Positions 29,663-62,483 of a stretch of DNA of 64,000 nucleotides are shown one piece after another. Every line of letters starts with the position of its first letter. The stretch's first letter is position 1. The stretch is from Xylographa opegraphella (taxonomy: Eukaryota), in assembly GCA_022813865.1 (NCBI GenBank), contig JALDZX010000009.1, positions 434,001 to 498,000 on the forward strand, given 5' to 3'. Made by a program: the position numbers and the translations under genes. The notes below the pieces were generated by a model. It saw only the letters and a list, made by a program, of their open reading frames with translations. It had not been told where the DNA came from and searched no databases.

Positions 29663-32465
29663 TTAGACAGAAAGTGGCTCCTTGACATTGTCGGCGATCC
29701 AGTCCGGAAGAGTGTCATTGAAGACGCATTGAGCGCGATGCTCGTCTTCAATGCTCCAGGCTGCGTCGAGGGCGGCCAATACGGCGGGATCCATGTGATC
29801 CCCGCCGTATTGGCTTACAGGAAATTCAAATTCGGCCAGGTCGTCGACTGCGATTGCGTCGACTGCGGCACGAACTTCTTGATCCATCACTTCATTGGAT
29901 TGGGATGGGCCAGTTGTATCTTCATATTTATAGCCGTGTGTGTCGGCATCTGCGGGACTAGCGACGATGGAACTCGATAGGCGACTCGCTTCTCTCAAGC
30001 CACTTGGTACCACAGGAGTAAAGCGCAAAGCATCAGACCTTACACGGGTCAAAGCATCAGTGTCGCTGGTTATATAGGTCATTGGTAGAGTGGGCGTAGC
30101 TTCGGTTGTTGCTGTGAATGATACAGTGGGTGTAGCTTCGGGAGTTGCTGGGGATGTTGCAGTGGGTGTAGCTTCGAGAGTTGCTGGGAATGTTGCAGTG
30201 GGTGGAGCTTCGGGAGTTGCTGGGAATGTTGCAGTGGGTGGAGCTGCGGGGGTTGCTGTAAATGTAGCGGTGGATAGAGCTGTAGGTGTAGCCATAGATG
30301 GTGCTGGTGCCACCGTGGTAGCTGTGAGTAATGTAGCATGAGCACGCGTTGGGGAAGGCGGCAGAGCCTCCTGCGATGACTCAGCTGGCCTGGTGCTTGC
30401 TTTCATTGCAGACTTGAGTGGTGCTGAAGACATTGATGGGTGGAATGTATTACTTGCTCCACGGTTGGACGGTTGGTCGGAGAAGTTGAGTTGATCAGAA
30501 AACTGTACTTCTTTGCCTTTTCCTTTGTCCATGAACACTCCCGCAGTCGTTTTAATTCCATCGCTATGTTCATCAGAGGATGATTGCGGAACCACAAATG
30601 AACGATTCCGATTGACCCCATTGAAAATGTTGCTATTCTTTGGATCCGCGAAGATTGTACCAGTGTATGGTGTGGCACGATGTGGATCACCGATAATCTG
30701 TCTAATTGGGGTGGATGGCCCCGCGTGAGTTGAGCATTGACGCTTAGCTGGATGTAAAGATGGATTGTTCCTGGAGAATTCCTCGTCGTCCTCATCACTC
30801 TCAGAGTCAGAAGCGAAAAACTGAGCATCCATTCCATAGCTAGTCCCCACAGGATTAGGAATTCGGTTAGGTGAGTAGCGCTTCCTCTTGGTACCGGTAA
30901 GCGCAGCTAATTGTTCCTTGACCCTACGTGCAACCTCATCTTGAATAGCGTTCTCACGAGTCTCTTTTGCTTTCCGCTCGAACGCTGCTTCCCTTAGCTT
31001 CTCATGATCAGCTTTCTGGTGCGCATCCGATAAAAGCAATGTGGGTTTGGGTACTCTTAGTGATTTACCGTGAAATGACACTTGTGTACTAGTAGGATTC
31101 GTCGATAGTGATTGATGAGTGAATAATGGTGGGTTGTTGAAAGGCGCTCCAGTTGCCGAGGTGTTATTCGGGTTTGCATTGCCATGTCCATTTGGTGCAG
31201 TTGTTTGAGAGGCTTCAGCTACACCAGGTATGATAGTGTCAAGCTGAGGGCGATGAAGACCAGGGACAAGTCGGCGGACGCTGCCCACCAAATTACCAAG
31301 GAATCCTGCACGGCGAGGGGTGTGAGTTTGAGCATGCAAATCAGATGACTGTTGTGTTTGCTGGTCAGAGGACGTCTGTATGACTGTACCACTTCCATCT
31401 ACAGGCCCGGACTGTCCTTGAACTTGGCTTGTATTGACACCTTCAGTGTTTGTTGGAGCGGACGCAGCGCCATTACCTTCGGTGTTTGTTGGAGCGGACG
31501 GAGCGCCATTACCTTCAGTGTATGTTGGAGCGGACGGACCACCATGGGTTGTCCCTGAATCATTCACATTCACAACGGAAGTTCCAGCAGTTAGTGTCTC
31601 TTGTGCTTTGAGAGCCGCTGCTGCTGTCTTCTCTGCTTTCTTCTTCTCATGCTCCTTGAACATCCCCATCAGGCCCTTCTTACTGGTGTTTATCTTCATG
31701 ATTTGGTCAGGCATGATCAAATCTTCTTCTTGATCCTTGTAAGGCATCAGTATGTAATTGCCATGCATGTCGTATGCATGATGACCAAGAGGTACTCGAA
31801 CTGGAGGCTTCGGTTGCATCACGGTCACAGGAGGTCCTTCGAAAGCAACTGCAGGCAGCGCTGGCGCTGTACGGACAGCTTTGACGACAGTTTTAGCTCG
31901 CTTATTGGAACTGTCCAAGGCTGCCTCAGTCTCTGCGAGTTTGCGCTTTGCAGCTTTCATGCGACGGGATAAGTTAGTAAGTTTAGTCTTTTCGGGTTCT
32001 GCTGGTGCAACAGTGTATGCAACAAATGGTACAGTGTTTGGCTGATAACCAGGTTCCAATGTACGAAGGAAATCTTGAATTGTGTCAAGCGGAACTGCGA
32101 TTTTGACCGTTGCTTCCCCATGAGGATATAGTGCCTTAGACTTGAGAAGAATATTGGTCGGGTTAAGCCAAATGTGTACTAAAGAGAGATCTTGACTAAA
32201 GAAAGGTTTGCGGAGTGTTGGGGTGTTATTAACAGGGGGTAAAGAAGATTTTGTCGTCTCACGCGAAGTCACCTCATCCTTCTTCGGTAATTGTTTCAAT
32301 TTGGGCACTCTTGGGACACGAGTAGACATAGGCAGCGCCTGAGGAGGAGTAGGAGGGTAGCCAGCAGCTGCAGCTGCGATACGCTGTCCACGACTATGAA
32401 GATGTTAGAATCATAACATGTTTTTTCGATGTTAACACTTACGTGCGAACACCGTTGCTCGACAT
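29663..32465 (-). CDS. Large low-complexity protein (~917 aa, 2 exons); possible nuclear-basket nucleoporin (Nup60/NupA-like)
   Basis: Exon 1 32465-32443, intron GTAAGT..CTAAC..TAG 32442-32394, exon 2 continues the 888-aa ORF. Short motifs KRKRYSPNRIPNPVGTSYGMD, ALRFTPVVPSGLR, LAEFEFP; nucleoporin identity is inference. Confidence 0.75.
30091..30291. repeat. Coding minisatellite, 36-bp unit (~5.5 copies), encoding ATPEAPPTATFP-like repeats
   Basis: Repeated GAGTTGCTGGGAATGTTGCAGTGGGTG(G/T)AGCTTCG(G/A) units visible on the + strand. Confidence 0.85.
31438..31540. repeat. Coding minisatellite, 36-bp unit (~3 copies), encoding GAPSAPTNTEGN
   Basis: CCTTC(A/G)GTGT(T/A)TGTTGGAGCGGACG repeated at ~31440, 31476 and 31512. 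Confidence 0.85.
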
Positions 32466-34169: not shown

Positions 34170-35450
34170 CTAACTGCGTCTTTTCTTCTTACTAGCAGTG
34201 TCTTTCGCTTGCTCTTCCTCATCTTTCGTATCTTCCTCTCGCCCTCGTTTCGTTCCTCTCACCCCGACTCCTATCTTGATCCCCGATGCATCATCTTGTA
34301 GCAAGTCCCACAAAGGCTGCAGGTCCGGGAAGTCGGTTTGATCATATTTGATCTTCGGTAAATGCTCAACACCAACCCTGCTTCGGTCAGATATCTTGTC
34401 ATTGTCCTTATACCATGGGAATAAATGCGGCACCCCGATCTTCTTCATCAGGTCCTCAATCGAGTACGCTGTTTCGGGAAAATTCTTTAAGTGGTTGACA
34501 AGGAAGACCAGATTTTCTTTGTGGTCAGCGCCGAACGAATACTTAACCAGCGCACACACAAACTCGATCCAATTGCATATCGTATCTCCGTCCAAGGTTC
34601 CTGCGTGCTGGCGGAACTCGATCGTTTGCTTCCGCTTCGTTTCATGACTTGGATAAGTGTCGGGGTCGATGAGATTCCTGAGATTGTAAGCCTTGTGTCT
34701 TTCGTCCGAAAACACCTCGTTAATATCCTCAAATGTTTTCTGCCGATCCAGCACTGCTATACTAGTAAGGGGCCCTAAACGAGAAAGCAGCTCGGGCTGC
34801 TGACTTGGTGCTCCTGCAAACTGATTCCGGATTCGGTCGTCTGAATGGAGTGACTCAATCTCGTGCTCGAAAGCTGTGACGGTCTGAGTAAACTTCTTGA
34901 GAAAAGGTAGAACGAACCTCCGTTGTTCTGCGCCTACATGCACATGGAAACCTGTGAGCCGGTTGACATAGAACTTGTAAGGACCTGGGAAGTTCTCCAG
35001 TATCGCAAGCACCAAGCGCACTTCCTCGAAACTTTTCTCCTCGAGTACCAAAATCCTCGAGACTACTTCTATTTCCGCTGTTTCGCTATTCGCCTCTGGG
35101 GGATCCCAAGTGGGGCATTCTGTTTTGACAATCCATTTATCGTACTTAGCCTTATAATGACTCTCTCGGAAAGTGCTGACAGGTACGTTGTTCTCCGCTA
35201 GCATTCGCGCAACGATCTCGAAGATGAGATTGTGTTCCATCTCAGGCTCCAAGTAAATCTCATATCTGGATGCTAACTTTCTTAGTTCACTCGTATAGCT
35301 CAGATCATATTTATAGAAGAATTCAAGCTCTATACCGAATGTCAACCGAACCTCAGTAGACACCGCTTGCGTAGCCGTCCGCTCATTTTCTTTTGGTGAT
35401 CTCCTGAGCGAACCCCGTAGATCCGGGCCGGGTCCCGAAGCCGGTCTCAT
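34170..35450 (-). CDS. Putative amidoligase (Amidoligase_2 / GS-GCS-fold COOH-NH2 ligase), paralogue A
   Basis: Intronless; LTFGIELEF, W.VKTE, EIEVVSRIL, VNRLTGFHVHVG, FEHEIESLH...R, AYNLRNL, QTIEFRQHAGTLD; first in-frame ATG at 35450 (the ORF track starts at a TTG). Confidence 0.85.
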   Translation of the reverse strand: MRPASGPGPDLRGSLRRSPKENERTATQAVSTEVRLTFGIELEFFYKYDLSYTSELRKLASRYEIYLEPEMEHNLIFEIVARMLAENNVPVSTFRESHYKAKYDKWIVKTECPTWDPPEANSETAEIEVVSRILVLEEKSFEEVRLVLAILENFPGPYKFYVNRLTGFHVHVGAEQRRFVLPFLKKFTQTVTAFEHEIESLHSDDRIRNQFAGAPSQQPELLSRLGPLTSIAVLDRQKTFEDINEVFSDERHKAYNLRNLIDPDTYPSHETKRKQTIEFRQHAGTLDGDTICNWIEFVCALVKYSFGADHKENLVFLVNHLKNFPETAYSIEDLMKKIGVPHLFPWYKDNDKISDRSRVGVEHLPKIKYDQTDFPDLQPLWDLLQDDASGIKIGVGVRGTKRGREEDTKDEEEQAKDTASKKKRRS

Positions 35451-35903
35451 AGCTTGAATGCTAGATACAGAGAAGTTATTTGACAAGCAGTTGTATAGAT
35501 TATACAGTCAATCATATGTAAGTACCGTGAGATCCTAGAGATCAGCGAGGTAGATACGGAGGAATGGGGGACCACGGAAGTAGGCATAGAACACGATTGA
35601 AGAGAAAAGCAGGACGGTGTGGTTCCTTTGAAAGGTACATGTAGAGATTGCAACCGACAGCATGTTCCTTGTCATAAAAAATGGCGACCAATTTCCCAGC
35701 TCTCGTCATTTGCTCTTGAACAATGTGATCTTCGGACTTACTTTACCTTTGTACTCGAGATAAAGCAAGCCGTCTCGAAACGGGCATGTGGATATGCTCG
35801 TATATAAACCACATCGTGAGGACTTTCGTAAGGATTCCAGTGAGGACTTTAGGTAGTATGAGAGCGAACTGGCGGTCCATTGTGAAAGACTATCATCTCG
35901 AAC

Positions 35904-37073
35904 ATGGCGACTAACTCTCCACTCCAACTCACATTCGGAGTAGAGCTCGAGTTGCTTCTTGCTTACTTTCGAGAACCACAATTCGGATTCAGATTGGCGA
36001 ATATCAGGCAAGAATTGCTTGCTCAAGGAACGGATCAGGACGAAATTGATCGAGTGATAGGCATCGAAACTGCTCCGGAGAAGAATAGAGAACGCCGCAA
36101 AATTCTCACTCGATTGCAGCAAGTTGGAGTACCGGTCCACGATTGGGGCGTGGACGGCAAAAAAGACTACAGCCTTTGGACCGTTTCGCTTGATGACTCA
36201 GTGGTTCCGAGTGATGAGGAGTTGTATTCAATGAATCCACGGTGGGCTAACGGTCAGGTCTCGACCCTTACAGCTGAGGGGCGGGCGGCTATGTGCTACG
36301 CAAGTGTGGAAGTCTTCTCCAGAGTCCTTCCATATCATATGGACTCCCTTCGCGAAGTCGGAACTGTGGTCAATACAATTGTCGCAAAGTTTCCTGTTTA
36401 CGTCAACGAATCTTGCGCTCTACACGTCCATGTAGGTAATAGAGATTTCGGATTCCCTGTACAGACCGTGAAGAACTTCGCAACGCTAGTCACTTGTTTT
36501 GAAACGCAATTTAACCAGATCCATCCGCTGCATCGTCTTGACTACGCCTACTGCCTCCCCGAAACACTAGCTTTCAGGCCTAGGGAGCGGAATCTATGGC
36601 GGATGGCTGAGATAATCGACCAGTTGGACACTCACGAAAAGATTGTAAGACAGTTCGGAACGAAGCGCAATGACAGAGACGAAGTCTACCACTGGTGGTG
36701 TTACAATTATAACAACCTAGTATTGTCGAAGAGAACGATAGAATTTCGTCAGCATGCTGGCACGCTAGATCTTGCCGCAGTGTATCGATGGATCAACCTG
36801 ACCTGTACTGTCACAGCAATAGCCCATAATACTGAAACCGAGGCCTTCTGGGGCTTGATCCTACAATTCATCGACCACGAACGTGACCGCAATTATAATA
36901 TTTTCATGCTTCTGCGCTCCCTGCAACTTCCACTGCTTGTCGACGCTTATATAGGGCAGTGTCATGAGCATCCAGCTGACTTCAAGCCACAAGACCCGTT
37001 CGATGACGACGACGGATATGATTCACCTGACGATCTAGATCCAGTTTCCGATGATGACAGTCAATGTATCTAG
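35904..37073 (+). CDS. Putative amidoligase (Amidoligase_2 / GS-GCS-fold COOH-NH2 ligase), paralogue B
   Basis: Intronless 389 aa; LTFGVELEL, WTVSLDDSV, VEVFSRVL, VNESCALHVHVG, FETQFNQIHP.HR, CYNYNNL, RTIEFRQHAGTLD. Confidence 0.87.
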   Translation: MATNSPLQLTFGVELELLLAYFREPQFGFRLANIRQELLAQGTDQDEIDRVIGIETAPEKNRERRKILTRLQQVGVPVHDWGVDGKKDYSLWTVSLDDSVVPSDEELYSMNPRWANGQVSTLTAEGRAAMCYASVEVFSRVLPYHMDSLREVGTVVNTIVAKFPVYVNESCALHVHVGNRDFGFPVQTVKNFATLVTCFETQFNQIHPLHRLDYAYCLPETLAFRPRERNLWRMAEIIDQLDTHEKIVRQFGTKRNDRDEVYHWWCYNYNNLVLSKRTIEFRQHAGTLDLAAVYRWINLTCTVTAIAHNTETEAFWGLILQFIDHERDRNYNIFMLLRSLQLPLLVDAYIGQCHEHPADFKPQDPFDDDDGYDSPDDLDPVSDDDSQCI

Positions 37074-38996: not shown

Positions 38997-41900
38997 ATGT
39001 CCTTTGTGTCTGAGTCGCCTCGCAATCCTAAAGACAAAGATATCAATGTCGAGTAACAAGCTTCTTCACCACACTCACAAGCGAACTCACTGACCAATTC
39101 ATAGTATAATCGGAGTGCCCTCGATCCTTGGCGATCCATTCAAGACCTGGAATACCACGCGTGACCATCATTCCTATCAATGGCTCGGTCCCAGCCTTCA
39201 AGCAGAGATACCTTCAGCCCGGGTCCTCCTCTATGACCACCTCGAGCTCCAAGAGAGATCTATTGAGATCAAACCTACGGAGCACTCGGAGCACAAAGCT
39301 ACCTCGGAGGCGCATGCAGCTGTTCAACTCACGATCGACCAGCTTGGAGTGGAGGAATGGGCAGACAGGTTTCTTGACACCGTTCGTAAAAGTCGGGAAT
39401 CTGCACATGTAGGTTCCTCAATTTGGCTTACTGGCGCCTCTGATAATCGTTGCTTCAATAGCTAGGGAAACGCCCTATCGTAATTCTGTGTCACAGCACC
39501 GGTGGAGTGGTCGTCAAACGAGTATGATTTACACGAAATCTGACCTATAACGAAGTGCTAAATACGTATACAGGCTTTAAGCAGGAAACCCACAAAAAAA
39601 GGAGAAATAAGTTTAGCTTCTATCTGCATAGGTATTGTGTTTTTTGGAACACCACATCATGGGTCGCGGGTATTCTCGCAGCTAGAATTTGCTAGGCCTG
39701 TCAAGAATAAATTGAATTTGAAGTTCGAGATGTCGGAACACTTACAAGCAGATTTCGCCCTAGCCAACCCCGAGTTAGAGGCTGGAAATCATAGGTTTGG
39801 GGCAGCTTCTCTCGGTATCAAAATATGGTAACACCTATTCAATCGGCTTCTTCTACATTGAAAGAAAACACTGATGGTTGCAGGAACTATATCGAGACGA
39901 GAGATACGCAGCTTAAGGTCCTCGTCGGCGAGGAAACGGGCGGCGAATACCTTGCCAAAGTCAATCTTCTCGTAGTAGATGATCGGTCTGCAACGATGAC
40001 TACCTCCGATGTTTTGATTGAGGAGGAAGAAGTAAAAAAAATGAATACCAACCATGTCGGACTTGCTCGATTCGCCGATGACAATGGTAAGTACGATAAC
40101 AAACTTCGATTCAGGAAGTTAAACCATTGGTAGCCCTCCGTACCGACTTCTGTGAGGACCTCAAAGCCTACATCAAATCCACCAGCGCGCAGGATCGTGC
40201 TGCCCACCATTCTCTCACGACTGCTATAATGACAGATGTCAAAGTCTCCGTCCATCAGTTTTATAAAATGGAAGTCGCAAGTGGTGTGTATCAGTCATGC
40301 TTGAGCTCGAAGCATGTGCTAACACGGAACTTCTAGATGCTCGCGCTTTATTAGTATGGTCAGTGCAGCCCACGTTACAAGACTACCTTGATCTGGGACC
40401 CAGCGAATGCCTGAAGGCACGATTACATCCAGCAACCGAGAATGGTCATCAATCAAATGGAACTGTCAAACCATACATCAAGGTCAGACATGCTTCTGAA
40501 GTGTCTGCCCCGGGAGCGCTCGAGACACCACATATATCAATCTCGGCACCTACTTCCACAGTCGCCTCCATTTCGGGAGACAGTCCAGCCCCACCTCTTG
40601 ATATGGAATCTGCTGTCCTTAATGCTCCTACTATCATACTACCCAAGAATATTCACACTCGAAGACCACCGTTGAATGTCGCCGCTCACTCAGATCCGCA
40701 ATCTGCGAAACACCTTACCCCTGCATCCATAACACCTCAACCCACCTCTGCTGCCATTGAAGGAGATCCTGAAAATGTACCACATCCGGCTCGAGAGCCT
40801 CGGCCTCAAAGAGCTAGGACTTATCAAGCTCCCAGCCGAAGCACCGATCGCTTCCGTTGGGTCCACGTTCCTTATACTCATTCAGGTTGGGTGGCTCCCG
40901 TTTTGACCACTATCTCCCAAGAGAAGAAAAACATGGACCTTCATCGGAAACTACTTTCCGATCAGGTTTGGCTCTCCCAGCACAACCGTAGTCGACATAG
41001 CTCGTCTCATGCTCGTTTCGTTCGTTCTGCATGCAAGAGTTTGTTACCGAAATCTGCCGCGCATCATCACGATGAGCTTCTATCACCGTCTAGCTCTATA
41101 GATGAAGCGCAGCTTGCGCTGTATCTCCCTTATCTTCATTGGGACAACTTTGACCAATTGCAAACTCGTGCCGAAGTTATTCGGAAAAGAGGTGATCTAC
41201 CACACGCCCGTCCCGTTGATCGGGACATTGCTAAAGGCAAATCGACTGAATGCAAGGTACTAATATATATGGAATCCCGAATTCAACTACCGAGGACTAA
41301 AATGTATAGTTGATATGGCAATATCTCCATTCAAAGTGGCCCTTGCACACGTATGTTGCTGTCAATAAGCCATAAAGCTCGCTAACGGATTTTCAGGAGA
41401 CGCAGCTTGGATCAATATGGATATCCAGCTTTACGTAATACTGCTGTGCGAGATGCTGATCAGGTAAGCATAGCATTAATGTGAGATGTTCCTTCCAGTG
41501 TACTTAGCAGTTTTTTAAATAGGTGATATACAAGCAAACCAGAAATCCGGTTCTTCCGGAATCCGTATCGACCAAAGGATCCTCGATGCACAACATCAGT
41601 GCAATATTGCGTGCAGCTCGGGGCTCTGGCCCACGTCCCAACAAGATAAAGACAATGAGCGATGGCGCAGCAAAGGTCCTAATGGTAGACCAACTCTGGT
41701 TGTTTGTAGTCGACTCGTCCACGGTTGTGACGTTTGCAGCTCCCAAGGAGAAAACCGACGACAACCCGAGTGAAGAAGCAGATCTACTTACTCTCATGTA
41801 TAAGGATATCAACGGAGACCACGCTGAGCAATGCAATGATTGTTTCGACTTCGCGGCCTTAGCGGTAACCCATGCTGTCAAAGCACTCCTTGAGCATACC

Positions 41901-43133
41901 GACGACCCGAATCTCCAAGTTTTTCGCATCTTTGAGGAATACATCAGCGAATTGGTTAGTACGCTTATGCAATGTGAATCTGTGTTACTCCTTTATTTAA
42001 TACATTCTGTATTGGATGATGTTTTATCACTCCAGACGATATTGCTGACACAATTTTACAGACTGAACAGCAGACAAAATCGTTCAAGGTGATTCATAGC
42101 TCGAGATCTATTAGAAGACGTCACCAACTGAAGATAGGAATTCCGGGACAATTCACGACTCGAAGTAGAGTATATCGACAATCGCGATGACCTGAATGCA
42201 CTGTTGGAGCTGCGAGACGTCGAAGACGAGTGTAAGACCATTCATCTTTGTATCACACCCAAAACTAATAGAATTCCGTATAGTGAAAACAATCAATAAG
42301 TTATTTCTGGAGCAGCACAAGACCATAAAAGATATGATTAGACAATATAAAGAACTTAACCTACGGCAGCTTGGTATGTTCGGGAGACTTTTGCTTGAGG
42401 ATGTGGATAAATGTGTGGAATACTATCTCGAGCAAGTTTCTAGCATGTTAACGAGTGCTGATGTGGCACAAAATTCCGTAGGTGGTACGAACCTATTGAT
42501 TCCGAAGCTGCTAATTTCTTCTCAGTTCGAAAAATTGCTCGATATGAAGCAGAAGCAAGCCAACATCGTCGAAGCTCATCTTGCACGAGAGCAAACAGAG
42601 GTTGCCGCGGATCAATCTAGGAGTGTTATGATATTCACCATTTTTACCATTATCTTTCTACCACTCTCATTCTGTAAGACACCCCTACATGCATTGCTTG
42701 GAGAGGTGCTTCTGCACCTTCACAGACAACATATCCCCCTACTCAAACAAAACTCACACTAAGACCTATCTCCATAGTCGCAAGCGTCTTTGGCATGAAC
42801 GTCAGCGAGTGGAGCGGCGTCGATTCCAACATCTCGTCCTACCACGCATTCCTATACATGGGAACAATCTCCCTCGCCGTCATCATCGTCGCTCTACTGG
42901 TCGCGTTCAACAAATACACCAGACGCATCCTTCAACGAATATGGAAGAAAATGGCGGGCCCGATGACGCGTTTCCTGCCGAAGATCCCGAGCAACAGAGT
43001 CCAGGGCTTAGTCCATTACTGGGATGTCGAACGTGTCCCGATCCGGGAATCCCCCTTGCACATAAGGGAGCGATCGAGGTCGCGCCCCGGCAGGCCGCAG
43101 ACACGAGGCCACGATGTACAGCATTTTTTCTGA
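38997..43133 (+). CDS. SesB-like alpha/beta-hydrolase fused to a fungal CorA-like membrane channel (~15 exons)
   Basis: Splices in frame across ~14 GT-AG introns (first 39053-39104, last ~42674-42777). N-terminus: IP.ARVLLYD, KRPIVILCHSTGGVVVKRAL, GIVFFGTPHHGS, NHVGLARF. C-terminus: RWVHVP, LYLPYLHWD, RRSLDQYGY...RDADQV, VLMVDQLWL, LLELRDVEDEL, LLDMKQKQAN, SVMIFTIFTIIFLPLSF..SVFGMN and a second TM helix. Confidence 0.85.
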
Positions 43134-43545
43134 GTAATTGAACTTTACGTGATGATCATGACTTATGAATAGGAGGATATGTGTGCGTTGCAAAGCAAGA
43201 AGTCGATCCTGGATACCCTATCGACCTCGGTCGAGCGTCTTTCTGTGCTTACGTTTGACACGTTACAGTTTGCAGGCGTGTTTGGATAGTAATGTATTAA
43301 CTGGAGCTGCTTACGAGTATGGCTGCGGTTTGGGAGAGTGTCGCAGTTCTGGCGTCATTATTTCAGAAGTTGATGGTTTTGTCATTTGACGCGAATGTTC
43401 ATAAGATTTAAAACGAAAAGTCTGCGGTATCATGTGATCTTTGTAAGACGTGTCCCTGTACTTCTATAACCGCCTTCTCCCACCCTCAGGATAGAGGTTG
43501 GCAGGCCTTAACCAGATCTTTCAGCGTCTATTCTACTGCTACCCT

Positions 43546-45093
43546 CTACCCTCTCTTCTTTCCAATCTCCCTCAGCCCATGCATCCACGGCCACAAACAC
43601 TTCGGCACCCTGACACATTCCCTCTCCTCATTCCACCCATTCTCCAACAGCGCCGCCAACACCCTCGGCACGGCCACCGCCGTCCCGTTGACCGTGTACG
43701 GCCACCCCACCCTCCCATCCGCCTCTCGCATCCTCGTCGCCAGCCGCCGGGTCTGATAATCCGTACAGATGCTCGCGGACGTGACCTCGCCCCAGCCGCC
43801 ATCCCTCTCCCGCCTGCCCGGGAAGAAGGCCTCGATATCCCGCTTCCGCACCGCGCTCGCCCCCAGATCCGCGGTCGGCTGCTCCAGCACGCGACAGTGC
43901 AGCCCTAGCTGCCGCAGGATCTGCATCTGCACCGCGACGACGGCGTCGAACAGCGCCGGCGCGTCTGCGGGGCTCGTCCAGGCGAACATCTCCACCTTGG
44001 TGAACTCGTGCACGCGGTACAGGCCCTTGGTGTCCACGCCGCGGCTGCCCGCCTCCGCGCGGTAGCAGCGGCTCGCGCCCACGACCCGCAGCGGCAGCGC
44101 CGAGACGTCCAGCTCTGCGGAGGCGTGCATGCCTGCGAACGGGATCTCCGCCGTGCCTGCGAGGCTGAGTTCCGGCTTACCCCTGTGTGCGTCCGAGGCT
44201 GACTGCGCGATACTGTAGACTTGTTGCTCGCCGCCGGTGTCCCGGGGGCGGAAGCCGCATGCTGTGGAGATGTGGCTGTAGGTGAGGGAAGGGGGCGTGA
44301 TGGGCGTGAAGCCGCGGGCCATGGCGGTGCTGAGGGCGTAGGAGACTAATGCGTGCTCGAGTAGCGCGGCGCCGTTCTTGAGATAGTAGAAGCCCCAGCC
44401 GGAGGTGAGAGCTGCGGCGGAGAAGTCGATGAGGTCGAGGGCGGAGGCGATGTAGACGTGGGAGCGGGAGAGGGGGGAGGACGACGACGACGAAGAAGTA
44501 GAGGATGGCGGCGGGTCAGGGTGCTCGTTGATGTACTTAATGAGACGAGGGGTCTTGCCGATGGGTGTTTCCGCGCTGGTGAGGTTGGGGAGCTCGAGAG
44601 CGAGGTCTTCCATGGAGGTAGTCAGTGCCTCCTCTTGGGCTTCTATCTCCCCAATTTGTTGCTTGAGCACGCGGGCCTCCTCAAGGATCGTGGCTTTGTC
44701 CTCTTCGGGGGCAGACTCGTCGACGACATCGCGCCCGCTGAAGGTCTTGCTATGGGAAAGCTTCGTTCGAAGGGTGTTGTTCTTTTCGCGCAGAGAGCGG
44801 CCATGTTGCTGCAGGGCTTTCCATTCGTCGAACAGGGCGATGATTTTGAGAGGGTGCGAGGCTTGAGCGTCGTAGTTGCGGTCGAGGCAGTTTTGGGCGT
44901 GTAGCTCGGGTTTTTGTCGGATGTGCTTGATGTCGATGTTTGGTTTCGGGGCAATCGAGGGACGTGATGGGGTGGATGGAGAGGAAGAGAAGCGCTTGGG
45001 AGGTTGAAGACGGGTATGTGGCTTTTTGAGTAATGAGAAGCCCAGTACGGGCCTGTTGAGAGCCATGGCATACGAAGCTCTGTGAATTTTCAT
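43546..45093 (-). CDS. DIA4: Seryl-tRNA synthetase, mitochondrial
   Basis: Presequence-like N-terminus; LPN, SGWGFYYL, LAGTAEIP, RCYRAEAGSRG.DTKGLYRVHEFTKVE, DLGASA.RK.DIEAF, GEVTSASICTDYQTRRL, TVNGTA.AVPR. Confidence 0.95.
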   Translation of the reverse strand: MKIHRASYAMALNRPVLGFSLLKKPHTRLQPPKRFSSSPSTPSRPSIAPKPNIDIKHIRQKPELHAQNCLDRNYDAQASHPLKIIALFDEWKALQQHGRSLREKNNTLRTKLSHSKTFSGRDVVDESAPEEDKATILEEARVLKQQIGEIEAQEEALTTSMEDLALELPNLTSAETPIGKTPRLIKYINEHPDPPPSSTSSSSSSSPLSRSHVYIASALDLIDFSAAALTSGWGFYYLKNGAALLEHALVSYALSTAMARGFTPITPPSLTYSHISTACGFRPRDTGGEQQVYSIAQSASDAHRGKPELSLAGTAEIPFAGMHASAELDVSALPLRVVGASRCYRAEAGSRGVDTKGLYRVHEFTKVEMFAWTSPADAPALFDAVVAVQMQILRQLGLHCRVLEQPTADLGASAVRKRDIEAFFPGRRERDGGWGEVTSASICTDYQTRRLATRMREADGRVGWPYTVNGTAVAVPRVLAALLENGWNEERECVRVPKCLWPWMHGLREIGKKRG

Positions 45094-45283
45094 GTTTGAG
45101 CTCGCTGAAGTAGAGGCTAGCCTCGGCCCGAGTTACCTGCCACTAGTCCACCGATAGAGGCTAAGCTCACGCGTCTAGGATTGGCGAGGTCGCGTCGCGT
45201 TGGCCCTCGACCCCAGTGACGCGGTTCGTTGCATTCCCTACGGCGCAACCTCATCAATTTGCCTATCACAACACAGACCAGCG

Positions 45284-59968: not shown

Positions 59969-60503
59969 GCGACTGTGATATCACGTGGCTGTGAGGGGAG
60001 GCGGTAGTAATGGGACATGCTCGTGTTGGAATATGTTCGGTGGGGCAAAAGGGCTCGTCAAGGGCCTCAGCGTGGTTCTATTGTCCATTTTCATGGCCCA
60101 TTCTCTCGTTTCCCGCTTGATACCCTTGATTTTGGTCGTTGGTGCATGGAATTTATATTCGAGATATTGCGATTTGGATCCGAGGTACCGTTCATATGAT
60201 TGCACAATGTGATCCGGGACCTACGAGTGACTGATGCTAAGATGTAATTGTGAGAGCAGGCTTGCTGTGCCCACCACAAATAAATATCAGATGAATGTAT
60301 ATTATATAGTTCTACAAAACTTATCATTCTTGCCATTCAAATAAATATGAGATTGGATAGGTATTCATTATTGATACACACTCGGAAATGTACTAGAAAT
60401 CCAATCCGTGAATATTCCAACGTCATAGTCACGTGCCGCGACCAGTCGACTAATTCCACCACGATGTTGAAATCCTTGCACCACCACACCACCCCCCCAC
60501 AAC

Positions 60504-61985
60504 ATGGCCGCCGAATTCCTCGCCACCCACGGCATCGACCTCCAAGCCGAGATGTCAAAAGTCCAATTCGGGACCGCGATTCCGCACTCTCCTGACCACG
60601 ATTCACCGTCCCCCACCACCGACGACTCCTCCACCCTGCCCCTCCCCGTCCCTGTTCCACTCACCACCCTCCCCTCCATCCTCCTCCCGTCCTCCCCCAC
60701 CACCCCCTACACGCTCACACTCTCCGCCTCCCCCTCCGTCATAACCTCCATCCACCCCTCGACCTCCCCCCTCCCCCCTCTCCTCGCCCTCCCCTCCCTC
60801 TGCCACCCCCACATCCACCTCGACAAAGCGCACCTCAACTCGCACCCCACCTTCGCCGACTTGCAACCGCCAAGCTCCTCCTTCGCCTCCGCCCTCACCA
60901 CCACCGCCCGCGCCAAAGCGCTCTTCACCCCCGCCGACCTGCTCACCCGCGGCAACTGGCTGCTCGCCGAGTCCGTCGCCGCGGGCGTGTCGCACGTGCG
61001 CGCCTTCGTCGAAGCCGACTCCACCGTCGGGCTCACGTGCGTGCACGCCGGCGTCCGGCTCCAGCGCCTCTGGCGCGCCCGCTGCACCGTGCAGCTGTGC
61101 GTGTTCGCGCAGGACCCCGTCTTCAGCGGCGGCGCGGCCGGGGACGGGCTCGAGAACCGCGCGCTGGTCGAGGAGGCTGCCGGCCTCGACGCCGTGGCCG
61201 CCGTGGGCAGCACGCCGTACGTGGAAGCCGACGCGGAGCGGGCGCGGCGCAACGTGCGCTGGGCGGTGCGGCTGGCGCTGCGGTCGCGCAAACACTTGGA
61301 CTTTCACCTGGACTACAACCTCGACGCCGGGAGGGAGCCGCTGGTGTGGTGCGTGCTGCAGACGCTGCGGCAGGAGGACTGGGTGCGCCGCAACCCGGGG
61401 CGGACGGTGTGCCTGGGGCATTGCACGCGGCTGACGCTGTTCGGGCGCGAAGATTGGACGCGCTTGCGGGACGCGGTGGCGGGCCTGCCGGTGTACTTCA
61501 TCGGCTTGCCGACGAGCGACCTCTTCATGATGGGGCGGCCAACGGAGGAAGAAGAAGGCCAGCGGCGCGATCGCGTGCGCGGCACGCTGCCGGTGCCGTG
61601 GATGGTGCGCGCGCTCGGCCTGCATACCGCGCTGGGCGTGAACAACGTCGGCAACGCCTTCACGCCGTGGGGCGGGGCGGACCCGCTCGGCCTGGCGGCG
61701 CTGGGCGTGGGCCTGTACCAGGCCGGCACCGCCGCCGACGCGGAGCTGCTGTACGAGTGCGTGTCGACGCGCGCAAGGGAGGCCATCGGCTTCGCGCCCA
61801 CGCCCGCGCCCGCGCAGCAGCTGTTGCTGCGCGAGGGCGACGCCGCTGATCTGGTGCTGTATGGGACGGAGGGACGGGGCGCGCCGCTGCGGAGGAGGCG
61901 GACGACTGTTAGGGAGGTGGTGTGCGATGCGGGACCGTGTAGGACGCTCGTCAAGGGCGGCTGTCGCGTGGTGGGGCTGCGGTGA
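60504..61985 (+). CDS. Metallo-dependent amidohydrolase, cytosine-deaminase-like
   Basis: LPSLCHPHIHLDKA (HxH metal site), GVSHVRAFVE.D, FAQDP, GSTPYVE, HLDFHLD, GHCTRL, GLPTSD, GVNNVGNAFTP.G, ADLVL. Confidence 0.9.
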   Translation: MAAEFLATHGIDLQAEMSKVQFGTAIPHSPDHDSPSPTTDDSSTLPLPVPVPLTTLPSILLPSSPTTPYTLTLSASPSVITSIHPSTSPLPPLLALPSLCHPHIHLDKAHLNSHPTFADLQPPSSSFASALTTTARAKALFTPADLLTRGNWLLAESVAAGVSHVRAFVEADSTVGLTCVHAGVRLQRLWRARCTVQLCVFAQDPVFSGGAAGDGLENRALVEEAAGLDAVAAVGSTPYVEADAERARRNVRWAVRLALRSRKHLDFHLDYNLDAGREPLVWCVLQTLRQEDWVRRNPGRTVCLGHCTRLTLFGREDWTRLRDAVAGLPVYFIGLPTSDLFMMGRPTEEEEGQRRDRVRGTLPVPWMVRALGLHTALGVNNVGNAFTPWGGADPLGLAALGVGLYQAGTAADAELLYECVSTRAREAIGFAPTPAPAQQLLLREGDAADLVLYGTEGRGAPLRRRRTTVREVVCDAGPCRTLVKGGCRVVGLR

Positions 61986-62483
61986 GGTGGGGGGGGGGAT
62001 GGCTGGTGCTTTCCGCCTGCTGTGCAGAGTGTTGGGTTTGTGGCGGATATGCTGTTATCGCCGCCTCCCCGTGGGGAAAGCTTTGTGGAGCGCGTTGGTG
62101 GAGGAGTGGTGCGACCGGGTGGGTGGGTGGGGGAGGATGGGATGGGGATGGAGAAGGGGAGTTTTTGAGGGAGAGAATTGGGTTTGCTTGGACGAGGAGA
62201 TGTAAAAGCGGGGGGGAGTGTGTACGAGGGAAAGAGATACATGAGAGAGGGGTGAATTAGAAGCGCAAGCGGAGGGGGGGGTATTATGGATCATTGTTAT
62301 CGAATGGCTTGATGAGATGCTCAAGCTCGGAGATCCGAAGGAGAAGTCAAAGAGTGGTTCAACGTTGCATTGTCGGTGACAAGAAGTATATATACTCTCC
62401 ACGCGCGCACCACCACCTCGAGCGGATACCTATAATTATGTACAAGGACCCTCGCTCACAATGCGGATTGAAGGAAGTTTTAA

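Follow-up and report, generated by a model that had tools for sequence, protein, structure and literature searches.

A conserved Xylographa opegraphella gene predicted to join a SesB-like alpha/beta-hydrolase to a divergent CorA-like membrane module

A stretch of 64,000 nucleotides from the lichen-forming fungus Xylographa opegraphella (contig JALDZX010000009.1, positions 434,001 to 498,000 of the forward strand; hereafter the window, numbered from its first letter) was analysed. On its plus strand, at 38997..43133, a gene was found whose predicted protein carries an N-terminal alpha/beta-hydrolase domain of the SesB-like type and a C-terminal half that appears to belong, as a divergent representative, to the CorA / 2-TM-GxN superfamily (TM, transmembrane). 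The reading that we favour, to which we give about an even chance, is that the protein is a cytosol-facing, probably active lipase-type hydrolase mounted on a pentameric cation pore of CorA fold, and that the two activities are coupled; the coupling and the biological role are what we infer from the domains and their relatives.

Joining of the open reading frame (ORF) fragments at splice sites gave a gene model of 15 exons and 14 GT-AG introns (46-107 nt) with 1101 codons (Table 1), in agreement with a preliminary description, made from the letters of the DNA, which had proposed that scattered fragments splice into one protein of about 1100 amino acids. A donor for intron 6 at 40281 (GTGGTG) was replaced by the one at 40284 (GTGTGT), on the basis of the donor consensus and the annotation in Xylographa parallela. 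Profiles built from relatives match the ORF fragments of the window colinearly on the plus strand. Fragments covered the N-domain profile in the order 19-121, 123-140, 140-224, 225-296, 293-342 and 340-371, and the C-module profile in the order 1-148, 147-160, 158-183, 183-326, 335-381, 371-486 and 478-561; elsewhere in the 64-kb window there was no match to either profile and no second copy. Pfam searches with single-exon translations gave nothing significant, the CorA fragments reaching 14-15 bits each, because the introns split the domains. Exon 7 (40337-41256) is an uninterrupted frame of 306 codons that extends from where the N-terminal fold ends to within the CorA-type domain, and because it bridges both halves, their join is independent of the intron calls.

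That two adjacent genes, one for a hydrolase and one for a CorA-like protein, have been wrongly joined is hardly credible to us. The introns are indeed many, one exon is only 27 nt long (42062-42088), and RNA support was not found for the organism; however, the open frame of exon 7 crosses both halves, the fusion recurs in 131 of 138 relatives and at 43 of 79 metagenome loci described below, and residues 327-373, which lie before the disordered stretch of the protein, seem to belong to the CorA-type domain. Because of the open frame and the conserved fusion, the hydrolase and CorA-like halves are confirmed, at the level of sequence, as one gene.

The 27-nt micro-exon, which encodes TEQQTKSFK and is required to keep the frame, has its counterpart in the proteins of X. 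parallela and X. carneopallida and is absent from the Lambiella gene model. At the other end, the window protein stops six residues short of its X. parallela orthologue, and the C-terminal end of the latter (NFT and stop) is still readable in another frame just 3' of the TGA (within 43110-43160), which suggests an indel of small size in the weakly conserved tail between X. opegraphella and X. parallela.

A hypothetical protein of X. parallela in NCBI (P0001, 1107 aa) served as the stand-in for the window protein in structure and profile work; in an alignment made with the splice model that used the earlier intron-6 donor, 1034 of 1100 aligned residues (94%) are identical between the two. When longer proteins were searched with exon 7, 64 out of 5451 candidates matched at E <=1e-3. 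The best were those of X. parallela (93% identity, 1107 aa), X. carneopallida (88%) and Lambiella insularis (75%), and they were followed by many other lichen-forming fungi and by an Aspergillus 'DUF676 domain-containing protein'. A word-index search with the C module returned orthologues only, among the best 120 of 420 matches. From the exon 7, N-domain and C-module searches (the last again as the best 120 of 420), 138 relatives were pooled; they are spread over the Lecanoromycetes, occur also in Aspergillus and Penicillium, and are named 'hypothetical' or 'DUF676 domain-containing' in the databases.

A local profile search showed both modules in 131 of these 138 relatives. The seven others have the C module alone, start either inside the disordered stretch or where the CorA domain does, and look like gene models truncated at the 5' end. 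Mean pairwise identity is 0.63 in the stalk and TM region, 0.59 in the CorA cytoplasmic domain, 0.51 in the hydrolase and 0.50 over residues 327-373, and falls to 0.29 in both the stretch rich in proline, serine and threonine (P/S/T-rich) and the C-terminal tail. Because of its housekeeping neighbours and its wide, fairly even conservation across Lecanoromycetes, the fusion gene looks, as far as sequence comparison goes, like a core orthologue, unlike a fast-evolving non-self gene, and the protein is probably single-copy. The preliminary description had counted a single-copy, slowly evolving orthologue that rescues transport and is non-toxic as speaking against its proposal of a defence-like role; what was found comes close to this as regards conserved orthology. 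One family member, P0022 of Dirinaria sp. (1145 aa), carries an N-terminal ribosomal L27e domain, and the initial portion of its hydrolase is missing; this is probably a gene model merged with an adjacent gene.

The structure of P0001 was modelled with AlphaFold2 from a family alignment of 42 sequences, the same alignment from which all residue-conservation counts below were taken. The mean predicted local distance difference test score (pLDDT) was 70.9 and the predicted template modelling score (pTM) 0.64, and most of the first 372 residues had a pLDDT of 85-95. A Foldseek search of the PDB gave the phospholipase PlaB as top match (6.7e-6); next came esterases, lipases, LCAT and a thioesterase. 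The VIA alignments agreed with this: the PlaB domain gave Z 20.0 with a root-mean-square deviation (rmsd) of 3.1 over 238 aligned residues, corresponding to model residues 15-309, and the lipases overall gave Z 17-19, among them the Bacillus lipase BlEst2 (18.9) and human monoglyceride lipase (about 17.5). At the sequence level, the N-domain profile met BlEst2 of Bacillus licheniformis as a weak match in the PDB (E 0.13, around TPHHGS).

In the model the putative catalytic residues stand in canonical order, Ser132 after strand beta5 (126-131), Asp232 after beta7 (223-229) and His282 after beta8 (273-278). The column of Ser132 holds Ser in 39 and Gly in 3 of the 42 members, that of Asp232 holds Asp in 36, Glu in 4, Val in 1 and Asn in 1, and that of His282 holds His in all 42; His131, Gly134 and Gly135 are likewise present in 42 of 42. 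These results support the assignment of the N-terminal domain as an alpha/beta-hydrolase with a predicted Ser132-Asp232-His282 triad, as had been proposed from its motifs. CHSTGG, FFGTPHHGS, NTNHVGLARF and, in the membrane part, FGMN were all found where the preliminary description had placed them, with the serine codon at 39495.

Comparison with the N-terminal PlaB domain from Legionella pneumophila (PDB 6zth), the best structural match, showed a shared xHSTG serine elbow and a similar triad spacing, 132/232/282 in the window protein against 85/203/251; in PlaB, according to parts of the preprint (bioRxiv 10.1101/2020.09.01.246603), the serine lies within THSTG and the triad is Ser85/Asp203/His251. 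Identity is 10-14%, however, and neither PlaB's C-terminal domain nor its NAD(H)-controlled tetramer has an equivalent in the window protein. The likeness is one of fold and motif and is uninformative on substrate.

The kinship of this hydrolase domain was traced with a word-index search and with a profile. The word-index search with residues 1-340 returned 67 family members among 2391 candidates, and none of the 67 had NACHT or NB-ARC in its precomputed Pfam annotation. The N-domain profile, built from 11 N-terminal segments and searched against 1.84 billion representatives, gave 7897 matches at E <=1e-3, 2544 at <=1e-10 and 138 at <=1e-30. The architectures of the best 150 of these 7897 were inspected. 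Among them, a CorA-like module was found in 83 of 143 new proteins and in 28 of the 30 proteins of at least 900 aa; the other two long proteins, and two shorter ones as well, were of the type of NOD-like receptors (NLRs), where NOD is the nucleotide-binding oligomerisation domain. P0280 (E 3.7e-28) combines DUF676 with NACHT/NPHP3_N, a winged helix and ankyrin repeats, P0279 combines DUF676 with NACHT, P0278 combines DUF676 with NB-ARC, and P0259 (1071 aa) has two tandem SesB-like hydrolase domains before an NTPase of NPHP3_N/NACHT type. The second of these hydrolase domains carries ICHSTGG, as does the window family. Thus, within the best 150 of 7897 matches, it is the N-terminal DUF676 domains of NACHT/NB-ARC proteins that stand closest to the hydrolase beyond its own family.

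The NLR domains share with the window protein the family (profile E 1e-28 to 1e-33), the N-terminal position and a common motif series, namely ..TW, RPI.F(I/V).HS.GG.V.K, TPH.GS, (F/Y).ET and NH...RF; the His motif of the window family aligns with NH..M.RF of P0280. The NLR domains have VHGLGG where the window protein has VPAIGADP at the first strand, and HSLGG where it has HSTGG at the nucleophile elbow, and the window protein, unlike the NLRs, has neither NACHT nor NB-ARC after the hydrolase. A Pfam scan of P0001, P0002, P0003 and five other family members gave no match to an NTPase family. With the Pfam DUF676 model (PF05057, cut-off 20.3 bits), P0003 reached 18.0 bits and the Aspergillus member P0064 21.8 bits, and PF05057 is present as a precomputed annotation on P0098 and P0099.

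Excerpts of two papers name SesB-like domains among the commonest N-terminal domains of fungal NLRs (PMC4986451, PMC12258605), and in supplement file 5 of the second, a table of Sordariales NLRs in which 'DUF676' occurs 848 times, two rows show the labels 'sesB' and Pfam DUF676 overlapping on N-terminal segments. These data support the identification of the N-domain of the window protein as SesB-like, on the evidence of sequence. The suggestion in the preliminary description that this motif set typifies the SesB-like heads of fungal NLRs is also supported, because the NLR-type proteins share the whole motif series.

As regards the C-terminal half, the Pfam CorA model (PF01544) matched P0001 over residues 809-1023 with 44.3 bits against a cut-off of 27, and exactly two hydrophobic 19-residue windows were found in the whole protein, at about residues 966-990 and 1006-1029. 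The two C-terminal TM helices anticipated in the preliminary description, with FGMN at residues 988-991, were thus recovered. The cytoplasmic domain of the family is marked by the motifs RFRWVHVPY, YLPYLHWD, RRSLDQYGY and MVDQLW. VIA aligned the model with CorA of Thermotoga maritima at Z 17.2-17.6; the alignment with 2iub_A (Z 17.2, rmsd 2.9, 259 aligned) paired model residues 327..945 with chain residues 26..289, and that with 8tmc_C gave Z 17.6 over 319 aligned residues at rmsd 13.6. What had been described as a 'CorA-associated soluble domain' therefore equals, by these alignments, the CorA cytoplasmic domain itself. The alignments start at model residue 324-327, and residues 327-373 may therefore be CorA cytoplasmic domain; judged from these ranges, they probably belong to it. 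The P/S/T-rich stretch that follows is as rich in these residues as had been noted, but it may be an insertion within the CorA cytoplasmic domain and not the inter-domain linker for which it had been taken.

The window protein resembles T. maritima CorA (PDB 2iub, 4i0u, 3jcf, 8tm*) in its cytoplasmic domain, in a stalk helix running into TM1, in a GxN motif at the outer end of TM1, in a second TM helix and in a basic stretch after TM2. It adds about 320 N-terminal residues with the hydrolase, a disordered insertion of 130 residues and a tail of 80 residues. According to parts of PMC6972854, 2-TM-GxN proteins are pentameric, carry the GxN signature, whose Asn forms the filter, and are broad in selectivity. 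In the family the middle residue of GxN is I in 38, M in 3 and V in 1 of the 42 members; the G is kept by 41 of them and the N by 39, and GMN is restricted to the Xylographa/Lambiella clade. GMN, which had been read as the CorA/Mrs2/Alr1 selectivity signature, is unusable here as a mark of Mg2+ and does not characterise the family. Taken together, the model and the profiles support the assignment of the C-terminal half as a divergent CorA / 2-TM-GxN superfamily member with a CorA fold.

The conservation of this half bears on whether it conducts. The CorA-like half could be non-conducting and serve a lipid-remodelling hydrolase only as its anchor in the membrane and its scaffold for oligomerisation, which would agree with its very low sequence likeness to functional CorA proteins, with the variable middle residue of GxN and with the loss of its N in 3 of 42 members. 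We hold this to be very unlikely, since the stalk, TM1, GxN and the next loop make up the most conserved region of the protein and the TM1-lining residues T972, T975, P980, S986, G989 and N991 are nearly invariant. Simple anchors are seldom so conserved. That the stalk and TM segments are the best-conserved region indicates more than a passive anchor and favours a working pore.

Alternatively, the protein might be a housekeeping ZntB-like GIN transporter (of Zn2+, Mg2+ or Co2+) in which the hydrolase fold, catalytic or not, is an accessory with a regulatory or protein-binding role. The equivalog models for such transporters score far under their cut-offs (TIGR00383 corA 21.4 bits against 200.75; ZntB NF007092 16.4 bits against 292), and the retention of Ser in 39, Asp/Glu in 40 and His in 42 of 42 members is hard to account for without catalysis. 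Such a transporter is therefore unlikely in our judgement, even though GIN is found in 38 of 42 members, the TM and stalk segments are strongly conserved, orthology is conserved within a core-genome neighbourhood and the loss of Ser in some members is compatible with a non-catalytic role. We know of no housekeeping CorA, Alr1 or Mrs2 protein with a hydrolase, and a literature search found no paper naming both 'DUF676' and 'CorA'. The broad selectivity of 2-TM-GxN proteins (parts of PMC6972854) would suit such a transporter, as would the passage of PMC12345182 in which a CorA-like protein from Fusarium oxysporum that bears ankyrin repeats is treated as a Mg/Zn transporter. The earlier statement that this is not the housekeeping Alr1/Mrs2 transporter holds as far as the CorA and ZntB equivalog scores go; the gene looks like a conserved orthologue among housekeeping genes.

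Self-association of the membrane part was modelled with four copies of P0001 residues 850-1060 and with no alignment, both unlike the calibration. The score was 0.35 (median of 0.35, 0.38 and 0.29) against 0.00 for the best of three controls, at least 61% of contacts agreed between runs, partner pLDDT was at least 53, and the contacts lay along TM1 (965-989), with self-contacts over 936-991. In calibration, the mark was reached by 21 of 30 same-chain pairs and by 0 of 23 single-chain proteins, and, among eukaryotic proteins with no older solved relative, by 1 of 7. The four-copy result supports self-association along TM1, although the pass may reflect memory of solved CorA pentamers.

The mechanism that we favour, a hydrolase coupled to a cation pore, would run as follows. 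The N-terminal 310 residues would act as a serine hydrolase of lipase or phospholipase character on the cytosolic side of the membrane. By analogy with other CorA-family proteins, the protein would form a homopentamer with a divalent-cation pore lined by its TM1 helices, and five hydrolase domains would thus stand around the cytosolic funnel, adjoining the membrane. Occupancy of the funnel by an ion or ligand would be coupled to hydrolysis of membrane lipids, and the outcome would be either a cation-responsive membrane lipase or a channel regulated by a lipase. The most likely biological setting is the handling of membrane or ion stress, which could extend to regulated cell death, and bulk Mg2+ uptake is probably not the role.

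Several observations weigh against this mechanism. The coupling of the funnel to lipid hydrolysis is purely conjectural. The close orthologue P0001 stays below the Pfam DUF676 cut-off, at 16.9 against 20.3 bits. The first-strand motif of the family is VP(A/S)I(G/L)(A/G)D where the NLR relatives have VHGLGG, and as the family is without the usual HG/VHGLGG after the first strand, its oxyanion loop is atypical. Gly stands in place of the nucleophilic Ser in 3 of 42 members, and several distant paralogues have lost this Ser (AHGYGG, GSGFGG, AHGLGG), implying that catalysis is dispensable in some lineages. On the side of the pore, sequence likeness of the full profile to solved CorA proteins in the PDB is weak (E 0.13) and confined to TM1-GxN, and with a variable middle residue in GxN, ion selectivity is not readable from the motif. 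Finally, RNA runs covering the stretch were sought and none was found, the only match being a DNA run from which the window itself may derive.

Other architectures on the CorA-like module were surveyed in metagenome contigs, which were scanned with two family motifs and yielded 79 loci that were sorted by local profiles. A hydrolase upstream of the module was strong at 43 of the 79 loci, weak at 7 and lacking at 7 that have at least 2.5 kb of upstream sequence, and 22 loci had too little upstream sequence to tell. Pfam was then run on 25 upstream ORFs from 10 divergent loci. At L065, L071, L061, L073 and L079 the sequence directly upstream of the module, on its own strand, encodes ankyrin repeats. 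At L062 (4546-6663, plus strand) a single ORF of 706 aa holds a SesB-like domain, ankyrin repeats and the start of the CorA-type domain; the SesB-like domain has VHG and AHGYGG, with the Ser lost. L079 combines GSGFGG with ankyrin repeats and the module, AHGLGG occurs at L059 and L058, L069 has a canonical hydrolase (VHGINGG / AHSLGG) upstream of the module, and L043 has a faint ILVHGLEGDPF. The survey of N-terminal domains on this module called for in the preliminary description thus turned up hydrolases, Ser-less hydrolases and ankyrin repeats.

The ankyrin-bearing loci agree with a cluster of ascomycete proteins named 'Ankyrin repeat protein family', which has 949 members and CorA on 91% of them. 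These ankyrin-repeat CorA-like proteins of Ascomycota have the same module, with PYLHW, RRTLDQ and MVDQLW; unlike in the window protein, ankyrin repeats precede it, alone or behind a Ser-less hydrolase, and the ankyrin-bearing loci score 63-185 bits with the C-module profile of the window family against mostly 400-1000 bits. No CorA-like module with a NOD was found among the architectures examined. By sequence, the module is thus combined with hydrolase and ankyrin, domain kinds that flank the NOD in many fungal NLRs, and the paralogues in which a Ser-less hydrolase and ankyrin accompany the CorA-like module suggest that modules have been exchanged between NLRs and this membrane family. No published description of the three-part architecture of L062 was found; a literature search on fungal CorA-like and ankyrin proteins gave only a passing mention, in the part of PMC12345182 cited above.

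These architectures bear on a further explanation, that the protein serves to execute regulated cell death or a non-self response, in which a SesB-like lipase effector, a kind that NACHT oligomerisation normally activates in NLRs, sits on a pentameric CorA pore that replaces this oligomerisation and, upon activation, kills by lipid hydrolysis or ion flux. The hydrolase kin outside the family are NLR-type heads (P0280, P0279, P0278 and P0259), the sesB and DUF676 labels overlap on Sordariales NLRs in the supplement of PMC12258605 cited above, and the distant paralogues put a SesB-like (pseudo)hydrolase plus ankyrin on the CorA-like module, at L062 in one ORF; because these paralogues share the module, a cell-death or non-self role becomes somewhat more plausible. 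It is nonetheless rather unlikely in our view. Many Lecanoromycetes have the conserved orthologue, and Aspergillus and Penicillium have relatives of it; the 64-kb window holds no second copy and its neighbours are housekeeping genes; the window protein has no NOD, amyloid motif or repeat sensor; and experimental proof of cell killing by a SesB-like domain was not met in the literature examined. A constitutive pentamer would, moreover, require another trigger, and the protein itself shows none.

A comparison with bacterial immunity had been drawn in the preliminary description and also belongs to this explanation. Excerpts of PMC10600005 and PMC12255297 describe CorA-family membrane effectors that are activated by SAM-AMP in type III CRISPR defence. 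Such an effector is like the window protein in being a CorA-family membrane protein, there serving an immune system, and unlike it in being bacterial and in having no specific sequence likeness to it. To our knowledge, no hydrolase fusion is known for a type III CRISPR CorA effector. The PADLOC CorA model stayed below its threshold, with 13.1 bits (E 0.0083) confined to the TM region, which is an unspecific match.

In its most far-reaching form, the same idea would make the fungal CorA-like module a NOD-independent, oligomerising membrane executioner of a family of proteins derived from NLRs: SesB-like heads, with or without ankyrin sensors, would have been transferred from NACHT/NB-ARC to a pentameric pore, where binding of a ligand or a lipid signal would cause cations to leak or set five lipases upon the membrane, and the family would be a eukaryotic counterpart of the type III CRISPR CorA effectors. 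We consider this decidedly unlikely.

Table 1. Features of the hydrolase-CorA fusion gene in the window (residue numbers refer to the protein)
Feature	Position	Strand	Basis or remark
Start and stop codons of the fusion gene	ATG at 38997, TGA at 43131-43133	+	DNA read
Exons 1-5	38997-39052, 39105-39408, 39462-39521, 39574-39827, 39884-40086	+	splice model
Exons 6-10	40134-40283, 40337-41256, 41310-41350, 41397-41463, 41523-41954	+	splice model
Exons 11-15	42062-42088, 42138-42231, 42284-42477, 42526-42673, 42778-43133	+	splice model
SesB-like / DUF676-type alpha/beta-hydrolase (predicted), aa 15-310, exons 1-6	39039..40186 including introns	+	AlphaFold2 model, VIA, profiles
Nucleophile elbow CHSTGG	39489..39506; Ser132 codon AGC 39495-39497	+	DNA read, alignment, model
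Lipase-type motif FFGTPHHGS after strand beta6	39640..39666	+	family-conserved
IETRDT with putative catalytic acid Asp232 (39903-39905)	39891..39908	+	after strand 223-229, topology only
NTNHVGLARF with putative catalytic His282 (40053-40055)	40044..40073	+	after strand 273-278
Beta-hairpin and helices with VHQFY motif, aa 327-373	40235..40428	+	VIA alignment ranges
Disordered P/S/T-rich stretch, aa 374-505	40429..40824	+	pLDDT 24-32; P 21, S 14, T 11 of 132 residues
CorA-type cytoplasmic alpha/beta/alpha domain (predicted), aa 506-901	40825..42378 including introns	+	model, VIA
Stalk helix continuous with TM1, aa 902-995	42379..42812	+	helix 901-994 in model
FGMN, aa 988-991	42789-42800 (GMN 42792-42800)	+	followed by conserved loop residues E and W
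TM2, aa 1005-1028	42840..42911	+	hydrophobic window; helix 1004-1027 in model
Basic, weakly conserved C-terminal tail, predicted cytosolic	42912..43130	+	pLDDT <50 from 1063

The genomic context of the fusion gene is of a housekeeping kind. Its neighbours include genes for a seryl-tRNA synthetase (43546-45132, minus strand), ribosomal protein SA, a Spb4-type helicase and a Gen1-type nuclease, and further for an actin-related protein, a homocysteine S-methyltransferase and two Amidoligase_2 paralogues. The Amidoligase_2 pair lies just upstream in divergent orientation, at 34170-35507 on the minus strand (Pfam E 1.6e-18) and at 35886-37073 on the plus strand (E 4.5e-24). An open stretch of 913 aa at 29663-32404 on the minus strand matched no Pfam family at E <=1e-5. 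The GC content of the window has its maximum at 60001-62000 (0.647), and long overlapping frames on both strands were seen in this GC-rich part, at 60471-61985 (plus), 60603-62054 (minus) and 61313-62290 (minus).

Both domain kinds were already known, and no published study of a conserved hydrolase-CorA fusion was found; in the NLR papers examined, 'CorA' occurred only within the word 'coral'. Should the hydrolase turn out to be active and coupled with the pore, the window protein would be the first of the CorA family to carry an enzyme of its own, and it would offer a simple system for signal transmission by the CorA funnel. The fusion protein is also an entry to the function of SesB-like domains, direct biochemistry of which was not met in the literature examined: here the domain resides in a protein that is conserved and probably single-copy, and of which Aspergillus species amenable to genetics have orthologues.

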